DNA of 64,000 nucleotides from a virus. Shown one piece after another: positions 13,741 through 38,789 of this stretch. The stretch covers positions 1 through 64,000 of the IMG/VR virus record IMGVR_UViG_3300028840_000888. The stretch is one strand, 5' to 3'. Made by a program: the position numbers and the translations under genes. The stretch's first letter is position 1; the number at the start of each line of letters is the position of its first letter. Below the pieces are notes generated by a model, which had not been told where the DNA came from, searched no databases, and saw only the letters and a list, made by a program, of their open reading frames with translations.

Positions 13741-13753
13741 CAAAAGGAGAACG

Positions 13754-14871: not shown

Positions 14872-15636
14872 TTAGCTGGTAGCCCTGGCCGCATCCGCTA
14901 TCACCTGCACGGTTCCACGCGATAGCTGGTTCACATCACCGGCAGCAATCTCCTGCAACTCATAAGCCATGCCACCCTGGATGGCAAGCTCAGCGGTGGC
15001 ACGGGCGGCAATCTCTATCGTTACGGTTCCTGCGCCTACATTGACGGCAAAGGTAACATCGCCGGGATTGGCCGCCGCTGCGCCATTGAGGTAGAGCAGG
15101 CCGGTGGTAGTATCCGCGAATAGGATCGCCTGCGCGTCCGTATCTTCCTCCACGTCATCCTTGATGGCGAATTGGATTTTGGTGTACCCGGCAGTGATGG
15201 TGCGTCCGGTGAAGCTAATCGTCGTAGTTGCGCCACGTACTATCTGGATATCGTCACCGTCTAGGGCCTCTGAAATAGTGCAGCCGCCGGCGCAATCCCA
15301 CACGTCGCACAGATCCGCCGCTGCCAGCAGGTCGTCAATGTCCTGCTCTACAGTTTGCAGGCTCCACAGTTGATCATCCCACTCGGCGCCAGCCACATCA
15401 CGGAAAAGTACGGCCACGCGATCCGCGTTCATTTCGGCGGCTGTAAGGGCCACATGTACCACGCGCCCGGTAGAGGTGGGTAGCGCGGCGATATTGGCAA
15501 GGGCGCCGCCATCCTTGCTTACCTGCACGTCACCTGCGGCTAAGGTCGGCGTGTTCTGGAACTGCGGGCGGTTCGCCTGTGAAGTCAGGGCGGTATCGAA
15601 TGTGTATGCTACGTTCTTCTTGGGTGGTACTGGCAT
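14872..15636 (-). CDS. Virion structural protein (tail-associated, BppU-like C-terminal domain)
   Basis: AGGAGG RBS; last gene of tail module; beta-rich. Confidence 0.55.
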   Translation of the reverse strand: MPVPPKKNVAYTFDTALTSQANRPQFQNTPTLAAGDVQVSKDGGALANIAALPTSTGRVVHVALTAAEMNADRVAVLFRDVAGAEWDDQLWSLQTVEQDIDDLLAAADLCDVWDCAGGCTISEALDGDDIQIVRGATTTISFTGRTITAGYTKIQFAIKDDVEEDTDAQAILFADTTTGLLYLNGAAAANPGDVTFAVNVGAGTVTIEIAARATAELAIQGGMAYELQEIAAGDVNQLSRGTVQVIADAARATS

Positions 15637-15646
15637 GGTGTCCCTC

Positions 15647-16753
15647 CTAAACAATAACTCCGGGCGTATTCACTGACACACTACGCCCCAACTGCGGCGC
15701 GAAAACATTGCGCACAAATACGCCAACTGATTCGCCCTTGACGAAGCCGCCGCGAATCGCCACGCCGCCACAGGTCTCCGGGATGCTGTCAACGTAAGGC
15801 ACAACATCAGGATTGGGCCCGGACACCCCGATCACTGCACCGGCTCCCAGGTAACGCGATAAAATATCCGGGCTTGGCGTATCGGACGCAAAGAGTAGCG
15901 TTGATCCATCAAGATAGATACTATCTTGATCCGCGACTGCCTGTGTTGTGTAGGCTCCCCACGCATTAGCCGTTTCATGAAGCAGTTCTGTCGAGAAGTC
16001 GTATACCTTCTGTGTCAAGGCATCCTCAAAAACCATCGAATCAGGGCGAAGCGGCCTAACGCCTGCCTGCAATAACAGTGTGCTGGCGTCAAAGTTTACC
16101 CGGTACAAATCATCCCCGGCTATCCCGCCACGGCAATAGAAGAAGGTCGGTGCATAACTATTGATGAAGACCCACGCGGCGTAACGAGTTGCGCTAAAGC
16201 TGGCTGTCGGCGTCCACGTCGCCGCACTGTCAGTACTCACGAATACTGTCGAGCGCCCAGGGATGCGCCAGCCTGACGAACATGCTACATTGCCATTATT
16301 GGCAACGATATTTCCGATCACCGAATGGCGCCCGGTAGCCTCCACCACATAAGCCGCCCACGTCCCGCCTTGATCTCCGCTACGCAGGGCATAGAGCGGA
16401 ACCGTGGAGGCTAATGATTCAACTGTGAAAAGTGCGTACACATCGCCATTGACCTGATCCACGCCGATGTCAATGATGGTGCTGTTGGGATCAGCCTCAC
16501 CGGTAAGCACGCGGGCCTGAGCAGTTGTTAGGATAGGAGACCACGCGCCGGTGGTGCGTGTAGAGATTACGCGAGTAGCAAGTGCCGCACCGTCAAGACA
16601 ATACTGGCGCAGGTTGTCGTCTTCCGGCGCGATTTCGATAATGTTGGTGCTACCCAGGCCGCCATTAGCCGCTGCCCACGCTTGCGGGGCAGTTAGCGAA
16701 TCAGTGGCATATACTCCTAGTAGTCCCGTTCCGATTATGTATTGTGTTGTCAT
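15647..16753 (-). CDS. Tail protein with Asp-box/BNR beta-propeller
   Basis: RSGDQGGTW and STDSAATW Asp-box motifs. Confidence 0.65.
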   Translation of the reverse strand: MTTQYIIGTGLLGVYATDSLTAPQAWAAANGGLGSTNIIEIAPEDDNLRQYCLDGAALATRVISTRTTGAWSPILTTAQARVLTGEADPNSTIIDIGVDQVNGDVYALFTVESLASTVPLYALRSGDQGGTWAAYVVEATGRHSVIGNIVANNGNVACSSGWRIPGRSTVFVSTDSAATWTPTASFSATRYAAWVFINSYAPTFFYCRGGIAGDDLYRVNFDASTLLLQAGVRPLRPDSMVFEDALTQKVYDFSTELLHETANAWGAYTTQAVADQDSIYLDGSTLLFASDTPSPDILSRYLGAGAVIGVSGPNPDVVPYVDSIPETCGGVAIRGGFVKGESVGVFVRNVFAPQLGRSVSVNTPGVIV

Positions 16754-22384: not shown

Positions 22385-22858
22385 CTATAGTGAGGCGCGT
22401 AGCGGCCACACGATAATAATACTATTGGTGGCGGTCTCACGGATGAAGCGGGCTGCGGTTGCCATGTCTACTGTCCATAATGTTTCGTCACCATCTTCAA
22501 GCAGCACGAAGTTACCGCCCGCCGTCGGGTTCGTGCCGTCAATCGTTACGCGGCAATCAGCCGTCTGCACCTGCAACTGCACATGCGTTGTGTTCGCGGG
22601 CAGAGCGGCCATGATAGTGATGGCATTGGTGACGGTGACAACCTGCTGTAAGCCGTTGGGCACATAGACGGAAGTGTCAACGTGTTGCGGAGTAGTCGCG
22701 CCGCCGCCGAGGGCCGCGAGGATGTTTTGTAGGGCCGTTAGTCCATCACCGCCGAGTCCGCGCACAATCGCATAGGTGTTGCCGCTTAGCAATTCGTAGC
22801 GTGTCGCGGCGTTGGCATTTACATTCTCAATACTGGTATTGTTCCTAATGTCTGGCAT
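22385..22858 (-). CDS. Hypothetical virion protein
   Basis: GGAGG RBS; 'VTIDGTNPT' beta-rich segment. Confidence 0.55.
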   Translation of the reverse strand: MPDIRNNTSIENVNANAATRYELLSGNTYAIVRGLGGDGLTALQNILAALGGGATTPQHVDTSVYVPNGLQQVVTVTNAITIMAALPANTTHVQLQVQTADCRVTIDGTNPTAGGNFVLLEDGDETLWTVDMATAARFIRETATNSIIIVWPLRASL

Positions 22859-23645
22859 GTTTTCCCTCCCATGTCCGCTCATCATTTAGAAAACGGGCAT
22901 ACTTAGTATTTGAAATTACCTTACTAAATTCTTTGTAGTTAGACAACCACGCACTCAACGGGTGACTATGCACGCGCTTTAGGTCGCACTTGAGTACCAA
23001 CCGGCGCACGCCCAAGAAGTCGCATGTCTTCTCGGATGCCGACCTCTTCATGCGCGCAACTGTAGGGCCTTCGCCGCCAACCATTTCGCCATAGGTCATG
23101 TGTAACACCTCAAGCCCGGATAATGCGAGGGCTTTGGCATAACGATCCTGGCGATTATCAAGCCACTGCATCATTTTGACAACGGCCTTCGGATTAACTT
23201 CTGTGGGCGTGATTGTGAGCTTGTGTTTAGTGGTATGCACCGGGTAGTAGGGGGCCTTGCCCTTGCGCACGATCTGATTGAAGACAATACTCGTGGCCTG
23301 GCGTAGTTTGTTGTCACGGGTAAGGTGGATGATGCGTGCCGGCGGCTGCATCTCCCTGATTCGCGCCCAAGCGTGTTGTTCAAAGAACTGGGTATACACG
23401 AGTTTGATCCCGCTGGCATGATAGCCCTCCTGGTGGCAAAGCATGTCGATAAGCTGTGGAACAGGTAACTTGCGGGCATAGCGTCGCCACACGCTGGCAT
23501 GGTGCACAGTCTCGGCGCGGTCACAATACACCTGCGGGTGATTGCTGAGACAGTGTGACAGGTAGGTTCCGCCGGCGCGCCGTTGCGCGCAAATCACGAA
23601 TGGTTGTGCAAGGTACTTGGTATCGTCATTGTCAACTTTCGGCAT
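22845..23645 (-). CDS. Sulfotransferase (Stf0-like)
   Basis: 5'-PSB loop FVICAQRRAGGTYL..L.NHP, GIKL, 3'-PB motif IIHLTRDNKLRQATS; GGAGG RBS before MPKVD. Confidence 0.8.
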   Translation of the reverse strand: MPKVDNDDTKYLAQPFVICAQRRAGGTYLSHCLSNHPQVYCDRAETVHHASVWRRYARKLPVPQLIDMLCHQEGYHASGIKLVYTQFFEQHAWARIREMQPPARIIHLTRDNKLRQATSIVFNQIVRKGKAPYYPVHTTKHKLTITPTEVNPKAVVKMMQWLDNRQDRYAKALALSGLEVLHMTYGEMVGGEGPTVARMKRSASEKTCDFLGVRRLVLKCDLKRVHSHPLSAWLSNYKEFSKVISNTKYARFLNDERTWEGKHARH

Positions 23646-24120
23646 GGTCTTCCTCCTCCGGTGGGCGCTTGATGAGCTTGAAAATAATGCTGGTACGCGC
23701 CTCGCTTGAGTAGCGTTTTTCGATGATCTTCCATTTGAAGGGCGTATAGAAGTCGTACTGCTGTCCGCGCTTGGTATCCGGGTCAAGCTGATCCATTAGC
23801 TGCAAGGACGCAAACCAGCGATGTGTCATATCGGCATGTGATATTTCGGCGTTCCAGTAGGGCAGCTTGATCCACGCGAGGCCGCCCGGCTTGGTGATGC
23901 GCCACACCTCGGCCATAATTGCCAGTCGGTCAATGTGTAGGTGCTCAAGTACTGATGATGCGATGACGGTATCAAACTCTTCGTCTTCCCAGGGCCACGG
24001 CAGTACATTTAGATCATGCGCCACATCCACATGCGGCGCGTGCTTGAATAGGTCATGATTCACTGCGCCGTCACGCGGCTTCTTTCCACATCCTAAAACT
24101 AAAATTCTTGCATCATCCAT
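23632..24120 (-). CDS. Class I SAM-dependent methyltransferase (type 11, glycan-cluster type)
   Basis: LVLGCG, HDLN.LPWPW....FD.V....VLEHL, EVWRITKPGG. Confidence 0.88.
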   Translation of the reverse strand: MDDARILVLGCGKKPRDGAVNHDLFKHAPHVDVAHDLNVLPWPWEDEEFDTVIASSVLEHLHIDRLAIMAEVWRITKPGGLAWIKLPYWNAEISHADMTHRWFASLQLMDQLDPDTKRGQQYDFYTPFKWKIIEKRYSSEARTSIIFKLIKRPPEEEDHAES

Positions 24121-24123
24121 AGC

Positions 24124-25806
24124 TTACCCCTTCAAATTGACGCGTCCATCTTCAAAATGCGTGCGTGACATCGGTATTACCTTATCCCATGCGCGTGGAT
24201 CACATAGCCCGTCCGGTGCGCTTATCTGCCCACGCCAGCGCCGTCCACGCATCGGGAAGTGGAGTATACCGGCGGTGCCTTTGCGCCCCGGCGGGTACTC
24301 CTCACCCTTCGCCGTGATGAGCGTGTTCCATTCATTGCCAAGCCAAAAGATGCGCAATGGCTCCGTATACATGGCGCGCATCCATGCGCCCTGGTCGCGG
24401 CCCTTGTTAATGCTCCACTCGTCAAGCCAACGCTTGAAAAATGACTTTGTGCGCGCGCACCTACGAAAGGCCCACACGCCGCCGTTGATCTGTAGGGCCT
24501 CAGTTGTACCGAGCATGTTTATGGTGCGGTGGTATTCGGGCTTGTTATTGCGCCGCTCAAAGCTCTTCATTGTGTCATGCAGATGTGGGTCTTTGCAGAT
24601 CACGTACTCCCAACCATCACGGAGTAGCTTGAAGAAGAACTCCACATTTGCCACGACTTCCGTGTCAGCGTCCATGTATAGAATGTACTCCCAGGTCTTG
24701 GGAGCGAGATCATAGATACTGAGCTTGGCAATGCGCCCGCCAATGTCCTTGTCCGGAGCCTTGACGAAAATATGCTCAGGCCCTAGTCGTTTATCACTTA
24801 CCAAAGCAACTGGAATATTCGGCATGTGCTGGCGGATCATCGGGATACAGATTTTGGCGCAATATCGTGACTGTTCACCGAAGGCCACCATATAGATACC
24901 CTGTTTACCATCGCGGTCGGGTAGCGCAGTGATGGCCGGCTTATCATATATCCAGTGCTCGAAGGTGCGCGCAATGCCAGATGTCCATGCCTTGACGCCG
25001 TGCGGCTTGGTTGCAGCACGCAGGGCCTCGCGGTCGATGCTATCACGTTCCTGTATGGCCCGGTCAACGGCGCGTTTCATTGCCGCAACATTGCCGCGTG
25101 GATACTTGTAGATACCGGGCATGTCTGGCAGGTCGGGATGTATGCCGACTTCTGCCGGAATGACTACCGGCACACCGCAGGCCATAGCCTCAAGCGTGGA
25201 CATTGGGCCGCCCTCAACCAGGGATGTGTTGAGGAAAATATCAAGGCTCTGGAAGAAGCCCGGCATGTCTTTCCACTTATACATAGTGGTGGGGATGGGC
25301 CAGCCGCGCCCGGCGGCTTTCCATTCTACAGGTAGATTGTGCTTCAGCAACTGGTCGAGCAACCCCTCTCCCTTGCGCCCGCTCTTGTAGCGGTATCCGG
25401 CCACGCCAATGACGGGACGCGAGCGGCGCGGATGTTCCTTGATTTTGAAAAAGTCCAGCTCTAAAGGCAACGGTAGCACAATGCCTTTCCCGAACTGCTT
25501 AAGGTGCGGAAGCTGGCGTGCGTTCATGGCAATACGCCAGGTTGAGGCTTTGGCGGCAGCATCATAAAGGTTGCGCTTGGCGGATCCGTTATCGCCTTCC
25601 TCATAGTGCGTCAAGTAGGCCACGGTCGGCGTTTTGTCAAATCCGCGATGCTTGCCATACTCGAAATAGCCAAGCCAGAAATTGATGTCTGCACCGGGGT
25701 CAGGGTCGGCGCTCACTGTCCACTGATGCGCCTCTACCAGGTGGCGCGCAAAGCGCGGAATCACCCGGTCATCTCGCCAGTTGCGGCATATTATATGTGT
25801 TCTCAT
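24124..25806 (-). CDS. Bifunctional glycosyltransferase: GT-B (GT4-like) fused to GT-A (GT8-like)
   Basis: DIFLNTSLVEGGPMSTLEAMACGVPVV (EX7E); C-terminal half ILYMDADT, INGGV, DQGA. Confidence 0.88.
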   Translation of the reverse strand: MRTHIICRNWRDDRVIPRFARHLVEAHQWTVSADPDPGADINFWLGYFEYGKHRGFDKTPTVAYLTHYEEGDNGSAKRNLYDAAAKASTWRIAMNARQLPHLKQFGKGIVLPLPLELDFFKIKEHPRRSRPVIGVAGYRYKSGRKGEGLLDQLLKHNLPVEWKAAGRGWPIPTTMYKWKDMPGFFQSLDIFLNTSLVEGGPMSTLEAMACGVPVVIPAEVGIHPDLPDMPGIYKYPRGNVAAMKRAVDRAIQERDSIDREALRAATKPHGVKAWTSGIARTFEHWIYDKPAITALPDRDGKQGIYMVAFGEQSRYCAKICIPMIRQHMPNIPVALVSDKRLGPEHIFVKAPDKDIGGRIAKLSIYDLAPKTWEYILYMDADTEVVANVEFFFKLLRDGWEYVICKDPHLHDTMKSFERRNNKPEYHRTINMLGTTEALQINGGVWAFRRCARTKSFFKRWLDEWSINKGRDQGAWMRAMYTEPLRIFWLGNEWNTLITAKGEEYPPGRKGTAGILHFPMRGRRWRGQISAPDGLCDPRAWDKVIPMSRTHFEDGRVNLKG

Positions 25807-26420
25807 TACCTCGCCTTCCCGAAGTCGTGCCTGATGACTTCGCCGTCCATATCATTGTACGGATACCCTAGCAGCCACACATGCGGCTGTACAATCTCAA
25901 TCGCCCTCACAAGCGCTGCCTGATCCTGCTTTCTCCACCGTGACCACTGCTTACGCCATTCTGAGAATAGTCGCTCCGTGGTCTCGTTGCGCTTCCAATA
26001 CACCACGCCTGCCTGGAATTGCAAGGGTGGGAATAGCCCGACCTCTTCACAGGTCATGGCGCGCTCTTGGTTCTCGATGTGGGCAAAGGCTGCGTTGCTC
26101 TGATTGCGGCTATAGGTAAGGGCGATGTCAAAGCCATTACGCAGAGCATCAAATGGCCCGTCGATGTCTTTCCTTGCCACGGTGTCAGCGTCCATATATA
26201 ATGTTTCGTCAAAGTCTGTGAGCAGGTCTTGGTTAAGTTTCGCATCCCTTACTCCAAATGAATTATCTTTGTAAAATATTGAATGAGTGCCTTTTATGTT
26301 CAGTGATTCGGTTATGATCGTGATATGTAGGTCACAAACTGCGCGGATACTATCCACGCACGCTTTAGCTGCCTGGTGTGCCTTGACGCCATAGGCTACA
26401 ATCACGATACCTCTGTTCAT
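25806..26420 (-). CDS. GT-A fold glycosyltransferase (GT8-like)
   Basis: TLYMDADT DxD motif, FQAGV, DQAAL, IRH. Confidence 0.85.
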   Translation of the reverse strand: MNRGIVIVAYGVKAHQAAKACVDSIRAVCDLHITIITESLNIKGTHSIFYKDNSFGVRDAKLNQDLLTDFDETLYMDADTVARKDIDGPFDALRNGFDIALTYSRNQSNAAFAHIENQERAMTCEEVGLFPPLQFQAGVVYWKRNETTERLFSEWRKQWSRWRKQDQAALVRAIEIVQPHVWLLGYPYNDMDGEVIRHDFGKAR

Positions 26421-27061
26421 TGCATCCACGTAATAGGCAAAGCGCACATGGTCGGCTTCGCCTTGTAGAGTGCGCGCATAAAGGCGTGTTGTGGATCACC
26501 TCCCTCCTGTTGCCAATGGCGTATGAGTTTTTGGGTATCATCACAGCGTCGAATGAACACGGCGCGCACATCATAGACAGGGAAGCGTAGGTCATGAATA
26601 AGCGCATCGGTCGTGGCCTTGTCCTTTGCGGAGCCAATATCACGCGCCAGGATACTATAGCGCCAGAGCGGAGCCGCCACTTGCCAGCCACGGTTGAGAC
26701 GGTGGAAGCCCACGGAAACTAGCTGCGGCTTGATCGTAGAGTTTCCCGCCATGATCAAAGTGCGCGGCCAAGCAAGTTCTCGCTTGCCGACCTTTACCTC
26801 AAGGTCAGGATATTGGCTAGTTAGTTTGGCGCGCAATGTCTCACTATCGCTGGTCAAGATCACACCACAGTGATCTAAGGCGAAGGCTTGACGGCGGTAT
26901 TCAGGTGTTACGTAGGGTGAAAGCCTAGCGTCGCCGGAGGCGATTAACTGCTGCGCACGTTGGCGTCCTACTGAAAACCAATCGCCGGGGCGATTGATGA
27001 CTATCTGCCCGTGTTTATCGGTCGTATGTACGATGTGCTTCGCTACAAGCTGTATGGGCAT
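26417..27061 (-). CDS. Degenerate GT-A-like protein
   Basis: C-terminal half parallels the neighbouring GT-A domains (VFIRRC...W......Q.AFMRALY) but has no DxD. Confidence 0.55.
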   Translation of the reverse strand: MPIQLVAKHIVHTTDKHGQIVINRPGDWFSVGRQRAQQLIASGDARLSPYVTPEYRRQAFALDHCGVILTSDSETLRAKLTSQYPDLEVKVGKRELAWPRTLIMAGNSTIKPQLVSVGFHRLNRGWQVAAPLWRYSILARDIGSAKDKATTDALIHDLRFPVYDVRAVFIRRCDDTQKLIRHWQQEGGDPQHAFMRALYKAKPTMCALPITWMQ

Positions 27062-27076
27062 GTAAAGCTCCTGTGT

Positions 27077-27105
27077 GGGCGCGCCGTCATGACGACGGCG
27101 CGCCC
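27077..27105. other. GC-rich hairpin between head genes and glycosylation cassette
   Basis: GGGCGCGCCGTC-ATGAC-GACGGCGCGCCC, 12-bp perfect stem, no U-tail. Confidence 0.7.
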
Positions 27106-27115
27106 AATATGTGAG

Positions 27116-27544
27116 TTAGTCCACAACGCTGTCAAGGTTTGTGGTATTGACCGCCATGTGGCGCGGAACAAGGCCCCAAATCTGCACAACGTAGGTCTCG
27201 CCCTGTCCTGCGGGGGTAGTTTCGATATTGATGGCATCGAAGCCGCCGTCAACGTCAAACTCCTCGCCGCGAATCTCGATAATCGTGGGGTTAGTGTCAG
27301 CGGCTTGGACGGTGGTGTCCTTGCCACCGGCATCAAAAGTCTTTGCCCCGGTTCCGGCGGCATCCGTTGCCTGCTCCACGTCCACGTCAATGTCACCGGT
27401 AAGGGTGACGGGCGTGATAATGACGACAAGACGGTGGAAGCGAGTTGAAAGGACATAGCCGGTGTTGTTCTCAACGGCGCTGGCTACCACAACATCATTA
27501 GCCAGTAATTCTGCTTGTTCAGTAAAACGTGCGGTGTAATCCAT
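27116..27544 (-). CDS. Capsid-associated (decoration-like) protein
   Basis: Immediately after MCP, AGGAGG RBS; 'VEQATDAAGTGAK' pattern. Confidence 0.55.
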   Translation of the reverse strand: MDYTARFTEQAELLANDVVVASAVENNTGYVLSTRFHRLVVIITPVTLTGDIDVDVEQATDAAGTGAKTFDAGGKDTTVQAADTNPTIIEIRGEEFDVDGGFDAINIETTPAGQGETYVVQIWGLVPRHMAVNTTNLDSVVD

Positions 27545-27558
27545 GATTATCCTCCTCC

Positions 27559-28902
27559 TTAGCTGCCACTCACGGCACCCAAGATGACGAACGGGCTAAC
27601 CTGAGTCGTCCCGTCCTGATACGTCAGCGGTGCGCTCATCCAGGGCTGACCATCTACGCGATACACCATGCGGAAGCTCGTTTGATCGTGGCGGAAAAGC
27701 TCAATATCGGTACTGCGGAAGGTGACTTCCTGGCGCTGTCCGATCACGTACTTGCTCCAATCTGCCAGCAAGATACTGCCTTGCGTTCCGGGTAGCGGTA
27801 GCTTTTCTTCCCAAATGATCGGATAGCCGAACAAGGTCGAAGGCACGCCCTCGCGGGCGTTCGGGATGAAGACGTAGGAGGGGTTGGCAGCCGGGCCATT
27901 GAGTTGGATCAGGTTCGCCATGTGCTGGCGGTTGATGTGCCATACGGGGCTACGGCCCTGGAAGGCCATGAGCATGTTGGCAAGGTCGCCAACGGAGAGG
28001 TTGGCGGCTGCCTGGGCCACAACGAGCGTGGGCTGGTTCACGGCAGTAATGACGCCGAGCGGTTGCCCGGTGCCGGTGCCTTGCAGGTAGGCGAGTTCAG
28101 AGTACCAGCGGATCGCCCCGGCGAAGCCCATCTCAGACTGTAGCCAAGTATCCAGGCTGATTACGGCATCTTCCAAAAGTTCATCAGAACTAATCGAGTA
28201 GCACACGAGCTTGTGTGCCACGAGCTGCATCTGTTTGAACTGCGGCGTGCTTTCATTTTTATTACTAGCTTCTTCCGTCCATGATGCAGTCATCCCGCCG
28301 AACCATGCCGGAGTCCCGGCGGTCGTGTTGGTCTGGTCAAGCACCGGAATGCGCAGAGCGCGCCGACGCATGGGAATGACCATTGCACGGGTGGCAATGG
28401 GCTGCGCGATAGGATCAAGGGCCAGCAGTTGATCGCGGTATTCGGTCGGGACAAGGAAACCACCATCGGCCCCCACATTTTCCACGAGCGCCTTGTTCTC
28501 CCATTGGCCGTCAACGCCGCCAGACGGCGCGCTTTCACTGTACAGCTTTGAAGCGGGCTCACTCCGATCTTGCCAATCGTGTAGGCGCGCATCAACATGA
28601 AAGCGGTGCTTTGAGCTTCCGGCGACATGCACGTGATAGGCGAAGTCGCCCAGGTTCCTGAATCCACCAGGCGCGACGGGTGCAGGCTGCCGGTTAGTCT
28701 CGGCCTCGATGTTTTTGAGCTCCTTCTGTGCATCGGTCAGAAGCTCTAACTGTGCAGCCTGGTTGCCGTAGGTCTGCGCCTCGGCATACAACTCCTCAGA
28801 GCGCTTGATGTCTTCGGGCGTTGCCTGGTCGCTACTGACCAGGGCCAGGGCCTCGTTAACGCACTGAGTACGCTTCTCTTGAAGTTCTCGAATTTTAGAC
28901 AT
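27559..28902 (-). CDS. Major capsid protein, HK97 family
   Basis: N-terminal coiled-coil delta domain, ADGGFLVP, W.EE, ISSDELLED, LFGYPI, F..DQT.FR...RVDG. Confidence 0.95.
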   Translation of the reverse strand: MSKIRELQEKRTQCVNEALALVSSDQATPEDIKRSEELYAEAQTYGNQAAQLELLTDAQKELKNIEAETNRQPAPVAPGGFRNLGDFAYHVHVAGSSKHRFHVDARLHDWQDRSEPASKLYSESAPSGGVDGQWENKALVENVGADGGFLVPTEYRDQLLALDPIAQPIATRAMVIPMRRRALRIPVLDQTNTTAGTPAWFGGMTASWTEEASNKNESTPQFKQMQLVAHKLVCYSISSDELLEDAVISLDTWLQSEMGFAGAIRWYSELAYLQGTGTGQPLGVITAVNQPTLVVAQAAANLSVGDLANMLMAFQGRSPVWHINRQHMANLIQLNGPAANPSYVFIPNAREGVPSTLFGYPIIWEEKLPLPGTQGSILLADWSKYVIGQRQEVTFRSTDIELFRHDQTSFRMVYRVDGQPWMSAPLTYQDGTTQVSPFVILGAVSGS

Positions 28903-28914: not shown

Positions 28915-30873
28915 TTAAGTTAGTTTGTTAAGTTTTTGATACATCTCAATCCGTTGTCGTAACAGTTCCGCTTCGGTGGGTGCCTCATCAGGCGGCCCGG
29001 CCTCAGTGTCGCGGCCCTTATTTTCCTCATCTTCATTACCTGCCATGTCGTCTTCCGGTTCCACGGGCTCTTCCTCAGAAGGCATGGCGGTATCCAGCAT
29101 CTCCTCAAGCGCGGTGGCTGCGGCATGGATCTGGTCAATGGTTGCGCGTATGCGTTGTGCGTTGGCCTTGCTAATGGCGCGCCTGGCCTTTACCTCGCTG
29201 ACAGCATCCTCAAGCGCCATCATATAAGAGTAGGTAGTGTGCGACGGCATTTCGTAAATCTCTTGCGGGCACCTATCAGAGAATAAGTCAAGCATATCAC
29301 CAAGTATACTGCTCATTAGCTTGCGCTGTTCGCGGCCTATGTTTCCGTACATGTACGAGTCGTCACAAATCATGGTGTACATCTTATGAATACAGCCCTG
29401 TAAATAGTCACCGAACATGGGCATACCTTGCATTTTTGATTCATTGCCTTTGTTCGCGCCCATTTCCTCTTGATCCCACGGAGGTACAAGCCCGTCGTCG
29501 TCAAACTCCTCGCGCATCTTGGCATAGTAGCGCGCAACTTGCGTCTTGACGCGCTCTTGCTCTGCTTCTGGAATACCCACACCGCCACGTGCTCCCTGTA
29601 GCACTCCGGCAACGGCAAAAATTGCGCTAGGAATTGCAGTGAGTTCGCCGTTGATCACATCAGCATAGCCGAGCTTGTATCCACCAACCTGCTCGTCGGC
29701 TTCTGGATCACGGTAAAAGAAGGCATTCGCATATCGCTTCCAGTCTATCGTATCCAAGTCTTCGCTTTCGTCTTCACTTGCCCAACGACGTACACGCCCC
29801 TCCGCTTCCGTAGAATCCCATGCGCGATCACGCGATGCAAGTGGTAAGTTCTGATAAGTCAGCACGGCCTTTTTATCTTTCTTCATATCGCCCTCCGTTT
29901 TCTTCGCTGAGAGTGTGGCGGTCGCGGGATTCATGCCCCACAACACGTTGCTATACTCCCATAGCCTGATTTCCTTTAGTTGTCGCACGCTGCATTTCTC
30001 ACCGTTGCAGTTGGCTTCGACAAACTCAATCTGTACCGGGTCATAGCCGATGCTGCTTTCCGTGACGAAGCCGCCAGCCACGAGATTGAAGGCATTGCGC
30101 CCGTTATCCGTCTTCATGGCGTACTGTGTAGCCACGAGCAGGCCGCCGGTGGCATCGGGGGCATAACGTAGCACCTCCACGGGTAATTGATCCTGCCCGA
30201 CCTCACGCATCCATAGCGGCTTACCGATGACATTGTGAATTGAGTGCGCCTGGTGATTATCAAGGACACGCACCCGGCGGGCACTTTCGTCAATGCTCTT
30301 GGTGAAGGCTCCCGGCATGATCATGTCGCCGCCATCGTCAATATTGCCAATGACGGCCACGACCTGCTCAACTATGCCCTGGGCCTCATCGGCCTTGACC
30401 ACAAAGGTAGGCATCCGCTTGACTTCATAGTCTGGAAGATTGCGGTATGCGCCCGTCTTGCGTAGCTTCTGCGCATCAATTTTCTTTTTCATAGTGTTTA
30501 GAACCTCCTTCATACGACCTTCGCCCAACTGCCCAACGACGCCCCACTTCACCCATGCCACGACTCCGGCGATATTTGAAATGTTCGGCTCATCCGGGCT
30601 GCTGCCGGTAAAAGCGTCGCCGTTGTCAAAATGTCTTGCGGCCCATGCTTCACGTTCGCGGATCCATTCAAGCACGGCCTCACCTTCACTGCCGTCACGC
30701 GCACGCCCCCATAGCGTAAAGGCTTCATTACCGCGAATATTACCACCGGCATCCCATATCTGTGGGTAGTCGTCGCGTAAATCCTCAGCCCATGCCCGGT
30801 CAAACTGCGGATAATTGGAATTGCGCAGGCTTACCTTTAGATCATCGCCCTGTTGCGGGAAGTTAGTCGGCAT
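28915..30873 (-). CDS. Prohead maturation protease (HK97 family), multi-domain
   Basis: GNID.GGD.IMPGAF, LDNH, IGKP, SSIGY, LKEIRLWEYS.V..GMN; extra N- and C-terminal domains. Confidence 0.9.
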   Translation of the reverse strand: MPTNFPQQGDDLKVSLRNSNYPQFDRAWAEDLRDDYPQIWDAGGNIRGNEAFTLWGRARDGSEGEAVLEWIREREAWAARHFDNGDAFTGSSPDEPNISNIAGVVAWVKWGVVGQLGEGRMKEVLNTMKKKIDAQKLRKTGAYRNLPDYEVKRMPTFVVKADEAQGIVEQVVAVIGNIDDGGDMIMPGAFTKSIDESARRVRVLDNHQAHSIHNVIGKPLWMREVGQDQLPVEVLRYAPDATGGLLVATQYAMKTDNGRNAFNLVAGGFVTESSIGYDPVQIEFVEANCNGEKCSVRQLKEIRLWEYSNVLWGMNPATATLSAKKTEGDMKKDKKAVLTYQNLPLASRDRAWDSTEAEGRVRRWASEDESEDLDTIDWKRYANAFFYRDPEADEQVGGYKLGYADVINGELTAIPSAIFAVAGVLQGARGGVGIPEAEQERVKTQVARYYAKMREEFDDDGLVPPWDQEEMGANKGNESKMQGMPMFGDYLQGCIHKMYTMICDDSYMYGNIGREQRKLMSSILGDMLDLFSDRCPQEIYEMPSHTTYSYMMALEDAVSEVKARRAISKANAQRIRATIDQIHAAATALEEMLDTAMPSEEEPVEPEDDMAGNEDEENKGRDTEAGPPDEAPTEAELLRQRIEMYQKLNKLT

Positions 30874-31174
30874 GTTGCTTCTCCTGTGCCCTCGCCCACT
30901 TCTCATCTATCACGAGGATATGCAGGCGTTCTGTGTAGCCGCCGCGCACAGTTTTTCCACTGACGGGTAGCTTTTCGATGGTCACGACCTCGGTGTCTAA
31001 AATGTGCGGCGGTATTGACTTATTACCATAATTTAATACTGTGTAGCTTGGATTTGCGGCCATACCCGCGACTCTAACTGATGTTGTTCGTGCCGTTAGG
31101 TGCGCGAAAAATACACACAGGGCGTTTGGTTCAATGCCCAACTCTCTACAAAGCTCAATAATTGCGTGGTTCAT
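30863..31174 (-). CDS. Hypothetical protein
   Basis: GAGG RBS, coupled to neighbours. Confidence 0.6.
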   Translation of the reverse strand: MNHAIIELCRELGIEPNALCVFFAHLTARTTSVRVAGMAANPSYTVLNYGNKSIPPHILDTEVVTIEKLPVSGKTVRGGYTERLHILVIDEKWARAQEKQHAD

Positions 31175-31365
31175 TTTACCTCACTCGGTCCAGGTCGGCG
31201 CGCCGTGTCTGTTTCGGTTTTGCGCTCAAAGATCACGCGCAAGCCACACCCTGGGCATGTCTTGACTATCTGCTGTCCCGGCGCAATAGGGCGCTGGATA
31301 AAAATGCGCGCCTGACATTCCGGGCAGTGTACCACTGCCACTTTTTGGTATGTGTAATCCTGCAT
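31171..31365 (-). CDS. Small zinc-ribbon protein
   Basis: CPEC...CPGC. Confidence 0.65.
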   Translation of the reverse strand: MQDYTYQKVAVVHCPECQARIFIQRPIAPGQQIVKTCPGCGLRVIFERKTETDTARRPGPSEVK

Positions 31366-32282
31366 TATACTACCCCCTGCGTTACGTCCTGCGTAATCAC
31401 TGTAAATGTAGCAATAAGCGGCTCTGCACTATTACGCGCATTGGCCCCCGGTACTTCCATATCCACGATGTAGCTATATGTTGCATCTGTAGTGAAATTG
31501 TAGTCGCCAACAGCGCCGCCGGTCGGCGCCCAACGCAGCATTAGGAGCTCATTGTTTTCAAAACGCTGCCGCAACGCATTGAATACCATCCCGTCGGCTT
31601 CCGTGTAAAGTACCTCAATAGTCACGCGTTCGGCAATACGCTTTCCCATTGACACGATGGGCGTGTCCGTTGCCTGCGGCTGCGTCTCAGAAAAACGCCG
31701 GGAGCGGCGCGGGGTGCGGATTGAATTGGCAAAGCCGCTGACATCCACCCAGTTAATGTTATCGGTCGAGTATTCTATGAAATAGCAGCCCTGTGGATTG
31801 GCGGTTACATGCGCCTCAGTAAATAGTCCACACCATGCTGCCTCGGCATCACTATTAAGCGCCCCGACCACAGCCGGGAAGCCTGCCGCATAGCCGCCGG
31901 TAAGACGGTCGGTGCGAATTACGGATGGGTCATCGCTGCCGGTCTCATTAATAAATGATGTGTTGTTATTGACCTGGCGTGCGATCCACACGTAATCTGT
32001 CGTCAGCACTACACTGCCGGCTAGTGCTATTTCATATTGCGCCGCTCCGACCGCCACGGCAAAATCTGCCGTCTGAGCAAGCAGGGCCGATGGTAGACTT
32101 GCCACATCGCTGTAAATCCCTAATCTGTAGCGCGCTCCGGCGGGTGCAGTTACAACACGGAAGCGCAGCATTGATGCAGTTATAGGCGGCTGAATCGGGC
32201 AGCGCATGAAAAATGTCCATGTCTGGTTGATGTCCTGCTTGGAGGTAGCAAGACGTCCGCCCACATCATACCAGGTTCCCAT
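31365..32282 (-). CDS. Second tail-tube-like protein with N-terminal appended domain
   Basis: C-terminal ~145 aa align by eye with the major tail protein; N-terminal RLGIYSD....P..LLAQT beta domain. Confidence 0.7.
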   Translation of the reverse strand: MGTWYDVGGRLATSKQDINQTWTFFMRCPIQPPITASMLRFRVVTAPAGARYRLGIYSDVASLPSALLAQTADFAVAVGAAQYEIALAGSVVLTTDYVWIARQVNNNTSFINETGSDDPSVIRTDRLTGGYAAGFPAVVGALNSDAEAAWCGLFTEAHVTANPQGCYFIEYSTDNINWVDVSGFANSIRTPRRSRRFSETQPQATDTPIVSMGKRIAERVTIEVLYTEADGMVFNALRQRFENNELLMLRWAPTGGAVGDYNFTTDATYSYIVDMEVPGANARNSAEPLIATFTVITQDVTQGVV

Positions 32283-34750
32283 TACCCTACCCCCATGAAT
32301 GAGTTAAGGCGTCGGGAGCGCCGGTCTTGAATCATTGCGCCAAGTACGCGGGCGGCCCCGCCATCATAGACATTAGTAATGAAGGTGTCACCGCCGCCGG
32401 TAGCCTGCGCCCGTGATCCTTCAAGCGGCGCAACTGTGACCTGCTCGGCACCAGCTTCACCTGCCACGAAGTTGAAAGCTGTGGGTCGGTTTACGAAACG
32501 CGTCATGCCTGCTTGGAAGAACTCTTGCTCGGTGCGTCCCGTGAATCCACCGGCGGCACCGCCTTCACCGGGTAGCTTGTCGCCGGTGACATTGACGTTG
32601 ATATTGATGTCACGCGGAATTGCAGCGGCAGCACTGGATACGCCTTCAAGGTTTCCGGCTGCGGTACGCGCCCTTCCGCTCAGATTTTCCATAGCCCCGC
32701 CAAGATTGCGCGCAGCGTTCGAGCTTTCATGTAATGCCCTGCGGTTCGCGCTGAACCTTTCCTCCATTGCACTACCAACTTGTGCGCCGCGCTCACCCGC
32801 CTCTGATAGTGTGCCAACAAACTCGGAAGTGCTCTGGCTCATGCCGACTATACTTTCATCCACTGTCTGCATAGATTCGACTATGGCTTGCATACGTGGC
32901 GCCGCTTCTACTGCAACGGTATCTAGTCCCTGTGTTAAATTGCGCGTTTCACGAACTGACATGCCTAATGTTTCGCGCATGTTAGCCATGCGCTGATCAA
33001 TCGCCTCTATTGATTTGCCGCCGCGCTTCCCCACCTGCGTCATTTCTTTAGTGATTTCTTCTGTGTCTTTCGCAAGCCCTTGTACTGCACCATCCATAGC
33101 AAGTAGTTTGTCGGTGCGCTTTTCTATCGGGTCGCCCTCAATGATCTCTACATCACTGATCCCATCCAGTTCTCTTGAGAGTTTACCGGCGGCATCCGCC
33201 ATGCCCTGTGCGTCAACTGCGCCGCTCTCAAATTGTGAGGCAATTTCATCTATACCTTGAATGGCCTCAAGCGTTGCGTCATCCAGCAGGCCCCACTCAT
33301 TGGCAACCTGCTGTAAGCCCATAAGCTCAGCTTGTGTAAGCCCATCTAGGGCCAGGCGTTGCTCAAGGAATCCTAGCAGTATGCGGCGTGTCGCTTCTTC
33401 ATGGGCCGCTGCATTATCCTCAACGGCTTGCTGTGCGTCGCGCAGGCTGCCTTGCAGGTCTGAAAGTTGGCCCTTCTGATCATCTGTAAGATACCGCCGA
33501 CCTTCAAGTTCGGCTATCTGGTCTTTGAGTTCACGCACTTTGACACGGGCCTCATGCTGTTTCTCGGTGAAGCTCTCAACCTCTTGACTTATTGGCCCGC
33601 TCAATAATGTGTGGTATTGTGAAACGGCGTCTTTGGTCGCGGCAATTGCGCCCTCAAGTGTCTCGGCGTCTTGGGATGCGCTTCTCATGCTGACGCCCAT
33701 ATCACTAAAGCCCTCGCTGGCATACTCGCCGGCGCGGGCCGCTTGCGTAGTCTCAAAGGTGACACGATCCATAGTGTCGCCAAAACCCACGCCCAGGCGA
33801 ATGGCCTCATCAATGACCAAGTTATTATCGCCAAAAATCTTGTCAACTTCCTGCGCGGCCATGCCTTCTTCAAATAGTGACTTGCGTACAGTTTGGGCAA
33901 CCCGGTCAAATTCTGCGGTGGTCTGAATAGCAACCATCTGAGTGCGCGCGTAGTCTTCCCATGTGCGGCCCGCATCAATGGCCTGTTGTGTGTTGTCAGC
34001 TAGTGCGTCGCTTAGGTCGCGGGTGAAGGTAAAGACCTTGCTGGCGCTGTTCAGAACCGGGACTATGCCGTCAGCCACCCAAGAGACAAAGGCGTTCTTG
34101 GAGTCTGTGACAATGGCGGTAAGCCGGTCAATGCTGGCCTGTTGGCTATTCACGGAATCACCCAGGCGCTCCATAGACTGCGCCCCGATTTCAAGCACGG
34201 CATTGTTAAAGGCTGCCTCGCGGGATAGTCCGGGCATGGCGGCTTGCAGTTCCTCAATACGCGTGCGCACCTGAGCGCTGCTGATCCCGAAGTTGTCAAG
34301 ACGCGGGATTGACTGGTTTGCCAGGAGCGCGCTAAAGTCTCCAATACGGTCGCCCGCGCTCATGGTCTGGTCGCCCAATGCCACGGCCATGCTGGTCAGC
34401 TTGGCTGCTTGGTCAGCATTGTCAGCGAGGCCCATTGACAGGAATTTCGACACGGCCTGCATAGAGGTCATGCTGTCAATAGTGCCGTTAGTCGCCTGGC
34501 GGATCTGGCGTAGGAATTTGTCAGCCTCTTGCTCACTACCGGCAAGTGCAGTAAAGCGGTCGGCTACCGTGTTCACGGAAGCGCCGAGCTTCGCCATTTC
34601 AAACGTAGCAGTTAAAGCCCCGGCTGCTGCGGCGGCCCCTGCGAATGGCGCGGATTTACGCAGGGCATCAAAGGCATCTTCAATATTCTTAATGCCTTTA
34701 GTGTCCGATGATGTATCGACCTGTACTTCTACCCTGTTTCTACGCGCCAT
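32282..34750 (-). CDS. Tape measure protein
   Basis: 822 aa Ala/Gln-rich helical protein directly after frameshifted chaperone pair; C-terminal GEAGAE.V. Confidence 0.9.
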   Translation of the reverse strand: MARRNRVEVQVDTSSDTKGIKNIEDAFDALRKSAPFAGAAAAAGALTATFEMAKLGASVNTVADRFTALAGSEQEADKFLRQIRQATNGTIDSMTSMQAVSKFLSMGLADNADQAAKLTSMAVALGDQTMSAGDRIGDFSALLANQSIPRLDNFGISSAQVRTRIEELQAAMPGLSREAAFNNAVLEIGAQSMERLGDSVNSQQASIDRLTAIVTDSKNAFVSWVADGIVPVLNSASKVFTFTRDLSDALADNTQQAIDAGRTWEDYARTQMVAIQTTAEFDRVAQTVRKSLFEEGMAAQEVDKIFGDNNLVIDEAIRLGVGFGDTMDRVTFETTQAARAGEYASEGFSDMGVSMRSASQDAETLEGAIAATKDAVSQYHTLLSGPISQEVESFTEKQHEARVKVRELKDQIAELEGRRYLTDDQKGQLSDLQGSLRDAQQAVEDNAAAHEEATRRILLGFLEQRLALDGLTQAELMGLQQVANEWGLLDDATLEAIQGIDEIASQFESGAVDAQGMADAAGKLSRELDGISDVEIIEGDPIEKRTDKLLAMDGAVQGLAKDTEEITKEMTQVGKRGGKSIEAIDQRMANMRETLGMSVRETRNLTQGLDTVAVEAAPRMQAIVESMQTVDESIVGMSQSTSEFVGTLSEAGERGAQVGSAMEERFSANRRALHESSNAARNLGGAMENLSGRARTAAGNLEGVSSAAAAIPRDININVNVTGDKLPGEGGAAGGFTGRTEQEFFQAGMTRFVNRPTAFNFVAGEAGAEQVTVAPLEGSRAQATGGGDTFITNVYDGGAARVLGAMIQDRRSRRLNSFMGVG

Positions 34751-35051
34751 TGTTTTCTAATTCACTTCGTAATTTGATTATGTCCTGTATGAGCGGCCAT
34801 TGCTCTTTGTGCTGTGCCAACCAGTCCGAGATTTTGCCATCTATCTGCCGATTTGTCCAAGCTCGCCACGCGTCATAGTAAGCCCATGATGCCAAGATGC
34901 GGTTTAGCTCCCCCGCCGGCCATTCATTGAAGGCCCCTGGGTACGGCTTGATATTCCAACCGCGCATCCTGAACGCATGCGTTAGCTCTCGCGGCGGCGT
35001 TGCGCTGGCGTCATCAGCCGTTGCAACCGCCGCGAGTATCATGCTTTTGGG
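34740..35051 (-). CDS. Tail assembly chaperone, -1 frameshift extension (gpGT-like)
   Basis: Open in -1 frame from slippery heptamer CCCAAAA; stop overlaps TMP start. Confidence 0.8.
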   Translation of the reverse strand, partial: PKSMILAAVATADDASATPPRELTHAFRMRGWNIKPYPGAFNEWPAGELNRILASWAYYDAWRAWTNRQIDGKISDWLAQHKEQWPLIQDIIKLRSELENNGA

Positions 35052-35359
35052 ATTTGTGCATAGCTCAGTATTTCGCGCTGCGCAATGCTGGAAATCCAAG
35101 TCACGGCACGCGGGTCAAGTTCATGCACGGCGCTCTCATTGTAGCTGCACCAGCCGAGCCGGGCCAGGGTGCGCGCGACGACGCCATTGTATTCAGGCCC
35201 ACTCATGCCCTGGTCATCCTTACCAGTGCGCTTATTACGCGCCTTGATGTACTCGTCCTTGACGTTTCGCTCCGTGCCGAAATACAACTCCATCGCGCCC
35301 TGCGTGAACGGTTCCGGGATGCTGACTTTAATATTGTACTCTTTAAGTTCAGCTTTCAT
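35039..35359 (-). CDS. Tail assembly chaperone (gpG-like)
   Basis: Between tail tube and TMP; ends ATC CCA AAA GCA TGA. Confidence 0.82.
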   Translation of the reverse strand: MKAELKEYNIKVSIPEPFTQGAMELYFGTERNVKDEYIKARNKRTGKDDQGMSGPEYNGVVARTLARLGWCSYNESAVHELDPRAVTWISSIAQREILSYAQIPKA

Positions 35360-35367
35360 GGTTCCTC

Positions 35368-35850
35368 CTAACTCGAAATGGTATCGCGGTGAATCTTGTC
35401 GCTGAATAGCGAGAAGGAGAACGGAATAGGCGAGGCTTCGGACGCTTCGCCTCCGGGATAGTCAAAGTCCTGGATCACACCGCAGCGCACCTCATACTGC
35501 TTGTCGCCAATGGCGCCACCGGCAGGAGACCAGCGCGCGCAGTAGCGGGCATCATCACAATCCTCATCCTCAAACTTAGCGGCAATCGCCAAAAACGCAT
35601 CTGTCGGCTGCTCGGTATACAATCCTGCAAATAGCGGATTGACCGCAGTGCGCTTGCCGCCGTTGATGATAGGCGTGTCGTCACCGAATACCTGCGTCTC
35701 AGCAGTTATGCGCGTTTGTGTCGTATTGCTCACGCTCATAAAATGTCCGCTAATGTCCGTCCATGATCCACATACGCCAGCGGCGCATGGTGCGATCTCT
35801 AATTTTACACAACTCTGCGGAATCGAATAACCAGTTTTAGCCATCGTCAT
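35368..35850 (-). CDS. Major tail (tube) protein
   Basis: Position before chaperone and TMP; 160 aa beta-rich; GGAGG RBS. Confidence 0.8.
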   Translation of the reverse strand: MTMAKTGYSIPQSCVKLEIAPCAAGVCGSWTDISGHFMSVSNTTQTRITAETQVFGDDTPIINGGKRTAVNPLFAGLYTEQPTDAFLAIAAKFEDEDCDDARYCARWSPAGGAIGDKQYEVRCGVIQDFDYPGGEASEASPIPFSFSLFSDKIHRDTISS

Positions 35851-36191
35851 TACCTCCGTTTACAGTTGCAGCCTTCGCCATCCGGCGCGGGTGCAGTGAT
35901 AAATGAAAACGCCTGATCCTGCCAGGCTTTAAGCTCCTCTGCCTCTACGTCATCAATTTCGGCCGCATCTGCATACAGCAGGTCGCCAACCGTCTCGATC
36001 TCGTACTTCTTGAGCAGGGTTGCACGTTCTTGCCAGCCCTGCAAGATGTTAAGCGGCGGCGTATTGATCTTGTAAATCACGCCCTTTTCCTCTAGTATAC
36101 GCAGGGCCTTTGCGCTAAGCGCCTCACCACGAAAAACCTGCCCGCGCCGCTGTCCGGTACTCAAATTGTCCGTTGTGCGATAAAGTGCCAT
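35850..36191 (-). CDS. Hypothetical protein in tail module
   Basis: Coupled TAATG junctions; HhH-like 'L.K..IETVGDL' segment. Confidence 0.6.
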   Translation of the reverse strand: MALYRTTDNLSTGQRRGQVFRGEALSAKALRILEEKGVIYKINTPPLNILQGWQERATLLKKYEIETVGDLLYADAAEIDDVEAEELKAWQDQAFSFITAPAPDGEGCNCKRR

Positions 36192-38768: not shown

Positions 38769-38789
38769 GACTTAACTCCTTTCGGGTTT

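Follow-up and report, generated by a model that had tools for sequence, protein, structure and literature searches.

A linear IMG/VR virus record of 73.8 kb (IMGVR_UViG_3300028840_000888, estimated to be 88% complete) carries, behind its major capsid protein (MCP) gene, a cassette of five coupled genes that encode three proteins related to glycosyltransferases (GTs), a methyltransferase and a sulfotransferase. The analysis was based on the first 64 kb of this record, hereafter called the window. Sequence comparison indicates that more than 100 uncultured phages have this cassette, a conserved and mobile module that is linked to their capsid gene. On balance, it probably serves O-glycosylation of the virion, with methyl and sulfate groups tailoring the glycan. 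The observations that bear on this reading are the families and folds of the enzymes, the coupling of the genes, the conserved linkage to the capsid gene, domain fusions, and the distribution of C-terminal Ser and Thr residues among virion proteins.

Enzymes encoded by the cassette

The late genes of the window, including the capsid gene and the cassette, are all located on the minus strand. The capsid gene and the five cassette genes are as follows:

27559..28902, minus strand: MCP of the HK97 fold family, 447 aa, ending in ...SPFVILGAVSGS (PF05065, E 1.3e-39; phrog_10, E 8e-41)
26417..27061, minus strand: DxD-less GT-A-fold protein, 214 aa (hhalign, AlphaFold2 (AF2) and Foldseek)
25806..26447, minus strand: GT-A glycosyltransferase, GT8/Nucleotid_trans-like, 213 aa from GTG (hhalign and DAD motif)
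24124..25806, minus strand: GT4+GT-A bifunctional glycosyltransferase, 560 aa (PF00534, PF13692, EX7E, DAD)
23632..24120, minus strand: class I S-adenosylmethionine (SAM)-dependent methyltransferase, 162 aa (PF08241, LVLGCG)
22845..23645, minus strand: 3'-phosphoadenosine 5'-phosphosulfate (PAPS)-type sulfotransferase, 266 aa from the ATG at 23645 (PF13469, motifs, AF2 fold)

An earlier note on this DNA had described five coupled genes behind the capsid genes, and all of them were found in place. The word "coupled" was a fair one, as the junctions between the cassette genes are overlaps or gaps of no more than 54 nt. In a scan for promoters and terminators, the counts equaled those of shuffled sequence, and no sub-operon structure could be deduced from it. 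None of the five proteins contained a hydrophobic segment (the highest KD19 value was 1.46); thus, the enzymes are predicted to be soluble. Profile and structure comparisons (hhalign, AF2, Foldseek) returned the enzyme families and folds that the note had named.

The 560-aa protein combines two transferase domains, as had been claimed. Its GT4 domain matched PF00534 with 39.4 bits against a cut-off of 26.4 (aa 178-263) and PF13692 with 39.5 bits; with a profile score above the cut-off and the EX7E motif (E198-x7-E206), it belongs to GT4. The GT-A domain of the same protein has a DAD motif at residue 379. The 213-aa protein is homologous to this C-terminal domain (hhalign, 100%) and contains the motif LYMDADT, in which D86-A-D88 forms the DxD, in agreement with its description as a GT-A enzyme with DADT. 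Its Pfam scores were below the cut-offs, both for PF03407 (E 0.004, 17.7 bits vs 22) and for PF01501 (E 0.012, 15.7 bits vs 24.3). The true start of this gene is probably the ATG at 26420, located in an ATGA overlap.

The DxD feature, present in the 213-aa and 560-aa proteins, was missing from the 214-aa protein, which had no match in Pfam, PHROG or NCBIfam. The profile of its family (21 homologues) aligned with the neighboring GT-A family over aa 93-213 (hhalign, 98.7%, E 2.5e-16); however, IMAGNS is found where the GT-A neighbor has YMDADT. No D-x-D occurs anywhere in the protein, and the whole family lacks DxD at the aligned column. The AF2 model (pLDDT 94.2) had its best PDB matches in Foldseek among GT-A and nucleotide-diphospho-sugar transferase folds, with low TM values of 0.34-0.41, and the Atlas model showed TM 0.57-0.61 to GT-A clusters over aa 62-214. 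The N-terminal part forms a beta domain of about 60 aa. These results bear out the earlier description of a DxD-less GT-A-like protein, which, as far as can be judged from its sequence, is probably non-catalytic.

For the 162-aa methyltransferase, the type-11 assignment held: the protein scored 34.9 bits with PF08241 (cut-off 21.2), and its glycine-rich motif I (LVLGCG) is located at residues 7-12. The sulfotransferase required a correction of its start. The listed open reading frame (ORF; 313 aa, TTG start) overlaps the methyltransferase gene by 155 nt, whereas all 24 aligned homologues begin at the ATG at 23645; therefore, the gene likely extends over 23645-22845 and encodes 266 aa starting with MPKV. 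The protein matched PF13469 with 30.9 bits (cut-off 27, E 4e-7) and contains a P-loop-like motif, R23-A-G-G-T27, and a 3'-phosphate motif, R110-D-N-K-L-R-Q-A-T-S119. Residues R23, G25, G26, T27, R110, N112, R115, Q116, and S119 are invariant in the 24 homologues (R-x-G-G-T; R-x-N-x-x-R-Q-x-x-S), and both motifs align with those of Stf0 (1TEX). At the motif level, the nearest matches were the carbohydrate sulfotransferases Stf0 and 3RNL.

A search of PDB by Foldseek with the AF2 model of the sulfotransferase (pLDDT 88.6, pTM 0.88) gave 33 matches at E ≤ 0.001 with a best E of 5e-6. Nearly all were sulfotransferases, with a probability of 1.0 and TM of about 0.5, including heparan sulfate 3-OST, the bacterial 3RNL, tyrosylprotein sulfotransferases (ranks 9-14), and Stf0 (1TEX, E 8e-5). 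On these grounds of sequence and modeled fold, the protein is assigned to the PAPS-dependent sulfotransferase superfamily. The label "Stf0-like" stood as regards fold and motifs, but not as regards the Stf0 model of Pfam (PF09037), which scored 13.3 bits against 22 (E 0.059); the comparison of the sulfotransferase profile with 1TEX was not significant either (E 0.72). Thus, the protein resembles Stf0 and is not a member of the Stf0 family.

As to PAPS supply, no APS kinase is present. On the plus strand, a gene at 13727-14815 that converges with the last part of the late operon encodes a 362-aa protein of the PAPS_reduct family (PF01507, E 1e-10). The protein scored far below the equivalog cut-offs for CysH, DndC, and APS reductase, and a tie between this gene and the cassette was dropped for that reason.

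Recurrence of the cassette and its linkage to the capsid gene

IMG/VR was scanned with an alignment of the sulfotransferase, which yielded a set of 29 sulfotransferase loci (28 further contigs); the same scan with the single protein gave no match. In all 29 loci, a homologue of the GT4+GT-A enzyme with 39-56% identity adjoins the sulfotransferase, and in most of the loci a methyltransferase and a DxD-less protein are encoded as well, with several arrangements of the genes. Seven of them belong to the capsid lineage of the window, and six of these seven keep the gene order of the window from the MCP onward. The remaining loci form a second lineage (lineage B) with the order MCP (phrog_10), cassette, adaptor, head closure Hc1, neck, tail terminator, and a 135-aa major tail protein (phrog_1407).

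Scanning with this 135-aa tail protein yielded 80 loci. Among 31 distinct lineage-B loci spanning the region from MCP to neck, the GT4+GT-A gene directly followed the MCP gene in 30, and the cassette content varied as follows:

GT4+GT-A only: 12/31 loci
GT4+GT-A, DxD-less protein and methyltransferase: 6/31 loci
GT4+GT-A, DxD-less protein, methyltransferase and sulfotransferase: 10/31 loci
GT4+GT-A, DxD-less protein and sulfotransferase: 1/31 loci
GT4+GT-A and DxD-less protein only: 1/31 loci
no cassette gene: 1/31 loci

The GT4+GT-A gene is the core of the cassette, and the methyltransferase, sulfotransferase, and DxD-less protein are optional add-ons. All 17 loci with a methyltransferase or a sulfotransferase had the DxD-less protein, compared with 1 of the 14 loci lacking both (Fisher p 7e-8, uncorrected for phylogeny). 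Therefore, the DxD-less protein goes with the tailoring enzymes rather than with the core transferase. A relative from lineage B (L140, 4040-5511) has two GT-A-only genes without a GT4 domain after an MCP that ends in ETQLV, and thus represents a different minimal version of the post-MCP slot.

When the two lineages were compared, identity was 34-48% for the cassette proteins and about 25% for the portal and protease, and the MCPs could not be detected by tblastn. The higher similarity of the cassette suggests that the module moved between phage lineages, landing in the same place. The GC content of the cassette loci ranges from 0.40 to 0.68; therefore, the hosts are probably diverse and not confined to Actinobacteria. 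A scan of GTDB genomes revealed the cassette on two contigs of metagenome-assembled genomes, namely L058, labeled Sideroxydans, and L059, which is identical to L045 and labeled as a Thermoprotei archaeon. The two taxa are very different and both contigs look like binned phage, probably a binning artefact, so that neither taxon was taken as a host.

No cultured phage in the GenBank collection carries the cassette. A blastn search with the whole cassette found nothing among GenBank phages, and neither did tblastn against 50,697 GenBank phage records with the GT4+GT-A enzyme (E ≤ 1e-5) or the sulfotransferase (E ≤ 1e-3). Mycobacteriophages are included in this collection, as more than 200 Mycobacterium phages were matched in another search.

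Several fusions and accessory genes bear on the substrate of the enzymes. The methyltransferase and the sulfotransferase are fused in both orders, with the methyltransferase first in P0010, P0011, and P0087 and the sulfotransferase first in L057 and P0130. At E ≤ 1e-30, the wider sulfotransferase family has 155 members in the set of representatives, and at E ≤ 1e-3 it has 5,570. Some cassettes contain extra genes, namely two genes of the NDP-sugar 4,6-dehydratase/epimerase type (L043), a GT2 (L032, L038), or further O-methyltransferases (L031, L055). The fusions and sugar-nucleotide genes support a sugar as the predicted acceptor, that is, tailoring of a glycan. In addition, two metagenome proteins, P0079 (1047 aa) and P0163 (1143 aa), consist of an N-terminal GT2 and at least two domains of the cassette sulfotransferase family.

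The other late genes needed for the discussion below are as follows:

35368..35850, minus strand: tail-tube candidate, 160 aa, ending in ...DTISS (phrog_10528, E 4e-4), immediately preceding the chaperone ORFs and tape measure
28915..30906, minus strand: S78 prohead protease with a long C-terminal extension (PF04586, E 1e-9; phrog_80, E 2e-27)
27116..27544, minus strand: 142-aa protein after the MCP (phrog_28483, E 3e-11, function unknown in PHROG)
14872..15654, minus strand: final late-operon gene, 260 aa, ending in ...ARATS (no Pfam match; partial homologue in L037)

From high to low coordinates, the late genes of the window encode the large terminase, a portal fused to a MuF-like domain, small proteins, a head-tail adaptor, a Neck1-type protein, the tail-tube candidate, chaperone ORFs, the tape measure, a 305-aa protein, the protease, the MCP, the 142-aa protein, and the five cassette proteins, followed by presumed fibre and baseplate genes. 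In this order (28915-43541, minus strand), the block of protease, MCP, 142-aa gene, and cassette is unusually located 3' of the tape measure and the 305-aa gene. The relatives L029 and L051 show the usual order, with this block behind the portal. Protease, MCP, and cassette moved as one block in the window.

The 305-aa protein (31365-32282, minus strand) matches the tail-tube genes of L029 and L051 with its C-terminal half (28% identity in BLAST). It has a tube-like domain as in distal tail proteins, ends in QGVV and lacks a terminal Ser. Two small late proteins between portal and adaptor (38391-38768 and 39173-39664, minus strand) end in Ser (EKYS and PSRS). At the start of the record (window 1-60), a 15-bp tandem repeat (ACTGGGCGGGGCCAA-like) runs into an ORF at 62-508 on the plus strand with pentapeptide-repeat-like sequence.

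Homologues of the 142-aa protein follow the MCP in L019-L023 and other loci, including cassette-less relatives, and the protein therefore travels with the capsid gene and not with the cassette. Its neighbors in the Atlas are viral clusters, with a weak lead to Bbp16 (TM 0.72), and from this modeled similarity it is possibly a head accessory or cement protein. Of the earlier label "decoration gene", the position after the MCP was confirmed, whereas the only lead to a decoration role is this weak one.

C-terminal residues of virion proteins

The Ser-ended termini noted earlier for the window were confirmed, the MCP ending in GAVSGS, the tube candidate in DTISS, and the last late gene in ARATS. 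The terminal Ser is the sole tie of the last of these proteins to the cassette. A tail of 5-6 residues after SPFVxL, ending in Ser or Thr, is common to all seven cassette-bearing relatives of the window MCP, and more distant cassette-less relatives end in SPFVILN. Homologues of the tube candidate end in TITS (L029 and L051), TIAS (L052), and LST (L055). A tail-tube scan for the window lineage found only two contigs, both already in the set, and thus provided no independent tube control there.

The termini of all co-oriented ORFs in the sulfotransferase loci were surveyed after clustering by family. A Ser or Thr end was found in 15 of 21 MCPs (the rest ending in Ala), in all nine 135-aa tube proteins, in 8 of 10 head closure proteins, and in 1 of 83 cassette enzymes. 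Other families had mostly zero or one such end; the portal and tail-terminator families had 3/11 each.

The second survey included all lineage-B loci, with distinct C-terminal variants counted. The tube protein was Ser/Thr-ended in 46 of 47 variants; entropy was 0.75 bit at its last position, compared with 1.8-2.3 at positions -2 to -5. Where a GT4+GT-A gene was detected in the locus, 28/28 tube, 34 of 39 head closure, and 22 of 31 MCP termini were Ser or Thr. The commonest ending in the tube, head closure, and MCP alike was G-S. The sole exception among the tubes came from the sole cassette-less locus (L119/L138), in which the MCP ends in ALSV and the tube in TPSA; on the MCP tree, this locus nests among the cassette-bearing MCPs of lineage B. 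Of seven cultured relatives that have no GT gene between those for MCP and tube, six (Tarzan, Abidatro, Armstrong, RCIP0075, Mcat25, and Morrissey) have Ser or Thr at neither the MCP nor the tube end. The difference in tube termini between the cassette phages and the cultured GT-less relatives gave a Fisher p of 1e-6, uncorrected for phylogeny.

In Salinibacter phage 14_7 (L151, OR896224.1, 4987-10877), the MCP ends in PTAGS and a 152-aa protein in PNAGS, and a P-loop-like G-x-G-R-C-G-T-K-S-L stands at the start of the gene that follows the MCP. This 213-aa post-MCP gene could not be confirmed as a sulfotransferase, as it had no Pfam match and no hhalign match to the cassette sulfotransferase family.

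Proposed pathway, alternatives and known systems

In the proposed pathway, the products of the five genes would act in the cytoplasm, late in infection, on the structural proteins of the phage itself. The GT4+GT-A enzyme would start and lengthen a short O-linked sugar chain on exposed C-terminal tails ending in Ser or Thr, with the capsid subunit as the proposed first acceptor and the tail-tube subunit as the second. The extra GT-A would add a further sugar, the methyltransferase would transfer a methyl group from SAM, and the sulfotransferase would transfer sulfate from host PAPS, whereas the DxD-less protein would probably be a non-catalytic partner of the latter two enzymes. We infer the acceptor, the chemistry, and the order of these steps from the genes, and the biological role may lie in charge, stability, or shielding of the particle.

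The glycan coat suggested in the earlier note is partly supported by the capsid-linked module in more than 100 phages, the soluble enzymes, the fusions, the sugar genes, and the excess of Ser/Thr ends on capsid, head closure, and tube proteins over the other proteins of these loci and over most cassette-less relatives, but the terminal-Ser test was not clean. A broader proposal is put forward more tentatively: tailed phages of many environments and hosts (GC 40-68%) may have a pathway of their own that recognizes a short C-terminal G-S/T tail on the capsid, head closure, and tube proteins and builds an O-glycan, methylated and sulfated in a subset. A bacteriophage particle would then, for the first time, have a sulfated glycocalyx that the virus itself encodes, with the DxD-less protein as a dedicated adaptor.

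Several points weigh against virion glycosylation. Eight of the 31 distinct MCP termini of lineage B with GT4+GT-A end in Ala. The mycobacteriophage Butters (cluster N, NC_021061.1; L143/L144), with no annotated GT among its 66 genes, nevertheless has Ser-ended virion proteins, namely the MCP (MASS; 51% identical to the L042 MCP), head closure (RQTS), and major tail protein (QPAS); these ends must then serve a different role or be modified by something else. In the window lineage, the cassette-bearing MCPs form one well-supported clade on the MCP tree, and the cassette-less sister clade (L019, L024, L026, L028) is mostly Ser/Thr-ended too. Thus, the association between cassette and terminus in this lineage amounts to a single event, and its Fisher tests (p 3e-4 and 6e-3) were dropped as independent evidence. 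No recognizable GT was found in 20 sampled genes downstream of cassette-less MCPs, so some Ser/Thr-ended MCPs occur without a recognizable GT nearby. Furthermore, the post-capsid slot may just be a place where expression is high and cargo genes are tolerated; tblastn of GT4+GT-A (E ≤ 1e-5) detected no homology to the proven GTs Che8 gp110 and Corndog gp38; and the Foldseek matches of the sulfotransferase mix carbohydrate and protein-tyrosine enzymes, which the fold cannot separate. For the co-occurrence of cassette and Ser ends that the earlier note had proposed to check, the outcome is mixed, with Ser/Thr ends on most tube (46/47) and head closure (34/39) variants but also in Butters and the cassette-less sister clade, and with some Ala-ended MCPs in loci with GT4+GT-A. 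As a whole, the Ser/Thr termini are conserved and consistent with the proposed pathway, which makes them supportive but not decisive.

The main alternative is that the cassette, as cargo expressed late in infection, acts on a glycoconjugate of the host (lipopolysaccharide (LPS)/O-antigen precursors, capsule, a cell-wall polymer, or a glycolipid) and not on the virion. Its purpose could then be to alter receptors, block superinfection, or keep progeny off debris. GT4, GT8-like, and GT2 enzymes usually make cell-surface glycans, one source labels the sulfotransferase homologues "LPS sulfotransferase NodH," and the large sulfotransferase family (5,570 at E ≤ 1e-3) includes GT2-sulfotransferase multidomain proteins typical of polysaccharide synthesis; Ser/Thr termini also found without the cassette point the same way. 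However, no membrane segment, flippase, polymerase, or lipid-carrier enzyme is present. The known GT systems of seroconverting phages are membrane-bound and expressed from lysogeny regions, which also counts against this alternative. The cassette is always located in the head module by the MCP, even in lineages otherwise diverged beyond recognition, it moved together with the MCP in the window, and Ser/Thr ends on three unrelated virion proteins would have to be a coincidence. Modification of a host glycan explains the types of enzymes, but not the capsid-side position, the absent membrane components, or the termini, and we consider it unlikely.

It is still less probable that the GTs glycosylate the virion while the sulfotransferase, the methyltransferase, or both act on a protein side chain (Tyr/Ser O-sulfation) or a small acceptor. 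The ranks of the tyrosylprotein sulfotransferases among the best structural matches and the optional presence of the sulfotransferase in the cassette would agree with this; however, the family is fused to GT2 (P0079, P0163) and, in both orders, to the cassette methyltransferase, the sulfotransferase occurs only where GT4+GT-A does, and its nearest motif-level matches act on carbohydrates. Hypermodification of the bases in phage DNA by a glycan, with subsequent methylation and sulfation of that glycan, seems very improbable. PMC10829341 cites Iyer et al. (2013) for the computational prediction of GT- and sulfotransferase-based nucleotide modification systems in other phages, and the PAPS_reduct/DndC-like gene at 13727-14815 could be brought in as support. 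On the other side, no thymidylate-synthase-like hydroxymethylase was found in the record, the cassette is located in the head module and not among replication genes, and its linkage to the MCP across lineages would be left unexplained. A Tet/JBP search also found nothing, but its control gave no signal either, and the result has little weight.

To our knowledge, particle glycosylation has so far been demonstrated for only a few mycobacteriophages, and Freeman and co-workers are said to have found little sign of it in the wider phage population. If the cassette does glycosylate the virion, its capsid-linked, unrelated enzymes, found in more than 100 uncultured phages, would turn virion glycosylation into a trait of phages in general, and the optional methyl and sulfate tailoring would add a charged modification unreported for bacteriophage particles in the literature searched. 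This would bear on the surface charge and stability of virions, on how they adsorb to particles and mucus, on whether antibodies or grazers recognize them, and on the engineering of phage surfaces. It would also offer a simple rule, namely a C-terminal G-S/T tail together with a GT4+GT-A gene. The literature searched held neither a phage-encoded sulfotransferase linked to virion glycosylation nor a sulfated glycan on a bacteriophage virion.

The closest precedent is the virion O-glycosylation of mycobacteriophages (Freeman et al., 2023, as described in later papers), for which PMC12619734 mentions reported glycans at the C-termini of capsid and tail-tube subunits. Other papers describe Che8 (cluster F1), Corndog (cluster O), and Myrna (cluster C) as glycosylated (PMC12363180) and place an O-methyltransferase beside three tandem GTs in cluster O phages (PMC11600133). 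The earlier note had cited Che8 for GTs in the structural operon; glycosylation of the capsid and tube C-termini is indeed reported, but the GT genes of Che8-type F1 phages are located near the 3' end of the genome according to PMC11256854. Both systems have phage-encoded soluble GTs, and the combination of GT and methyltransferase in cluster O is a precedent for tailoring. The glycans there are reported at capsid and tube C-termini, and the capsid and tube proteins here end in Ser/Thr. The cassette adds a sulfotransferase and a DxD-less GT-A partner and is located directly after the capsid gene. Its enzymes are, by sequence, unrelated or very distant to the mycobacteriophage GTs, since no match was found among the GenBank phage records.

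In the chlorovirus PBCV-1, cytoplasmic GTs encoded by the virus glycosylate the major capsid protein, and A064R combines two rhamnosyltransferase domains with a methyltransferase domain. PBCV-1 and the cassette thus share virus-encoded cytoplasmic GTs, a sugar O-methyltransferase, and a multi-domain architecture of GT and methyltransferase; however, PBCV-1 is a giant virus of eukaryotes with N-linked glycans and unrelated sequence families. We know of no sulfation in its capsid glycan. In serine-rich-repeat adhesins, cytoplasmic Ser/Thr O-glycosylation is started by the GT4-family enzyme GtfA with its dead paralogue GtfB and extended by GT8-type GT-A enzymes, so that a GT4 starter, GT8-type extension, and a dead GT paralogue as partner would recur in the proposed pathway. 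As described, the dead paralogue of the adhesin system is a GT-B protein that partners the initiating enzyme, whereas that of the cassette has a GT-A fold and tracks the methyltransferase and sulfotransferase.

Sulfation is paired with methylation on one glycan in Nod factors (NodH/NoeE-type sulfotransferases and NoeI-type methylation), a pairing that would recur in the cassette, in which, to judge from the genes, the acceptor is probably protein-linked. The trehalose-2-sulfate enzyme Stf0 (PDB 1TEX) shares the PAPS-dependent fold and both motifs (R-x-G-x-T and R...Q-x-x-S) with the cassette sulfotransferase, which differs in scoring below the cut-off of the Stf0 Pfam model and in having no significant profile match to 1TEX. 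Finally, a prokaryotic virus particle with a sulfated sugar is represented by HRPV-1, a pleomorphic virus of haloarchaea, the VP4 protein of which carries an N-glycan with sulphated glucuronic acid made by the host (PMC6137143). That glycan is N-linked, located on the membrane spike of an archaeal virus, and synthesized by host machinery, whereas the sulfotransferase described here is encoded by the virus itself, a tailed phage.

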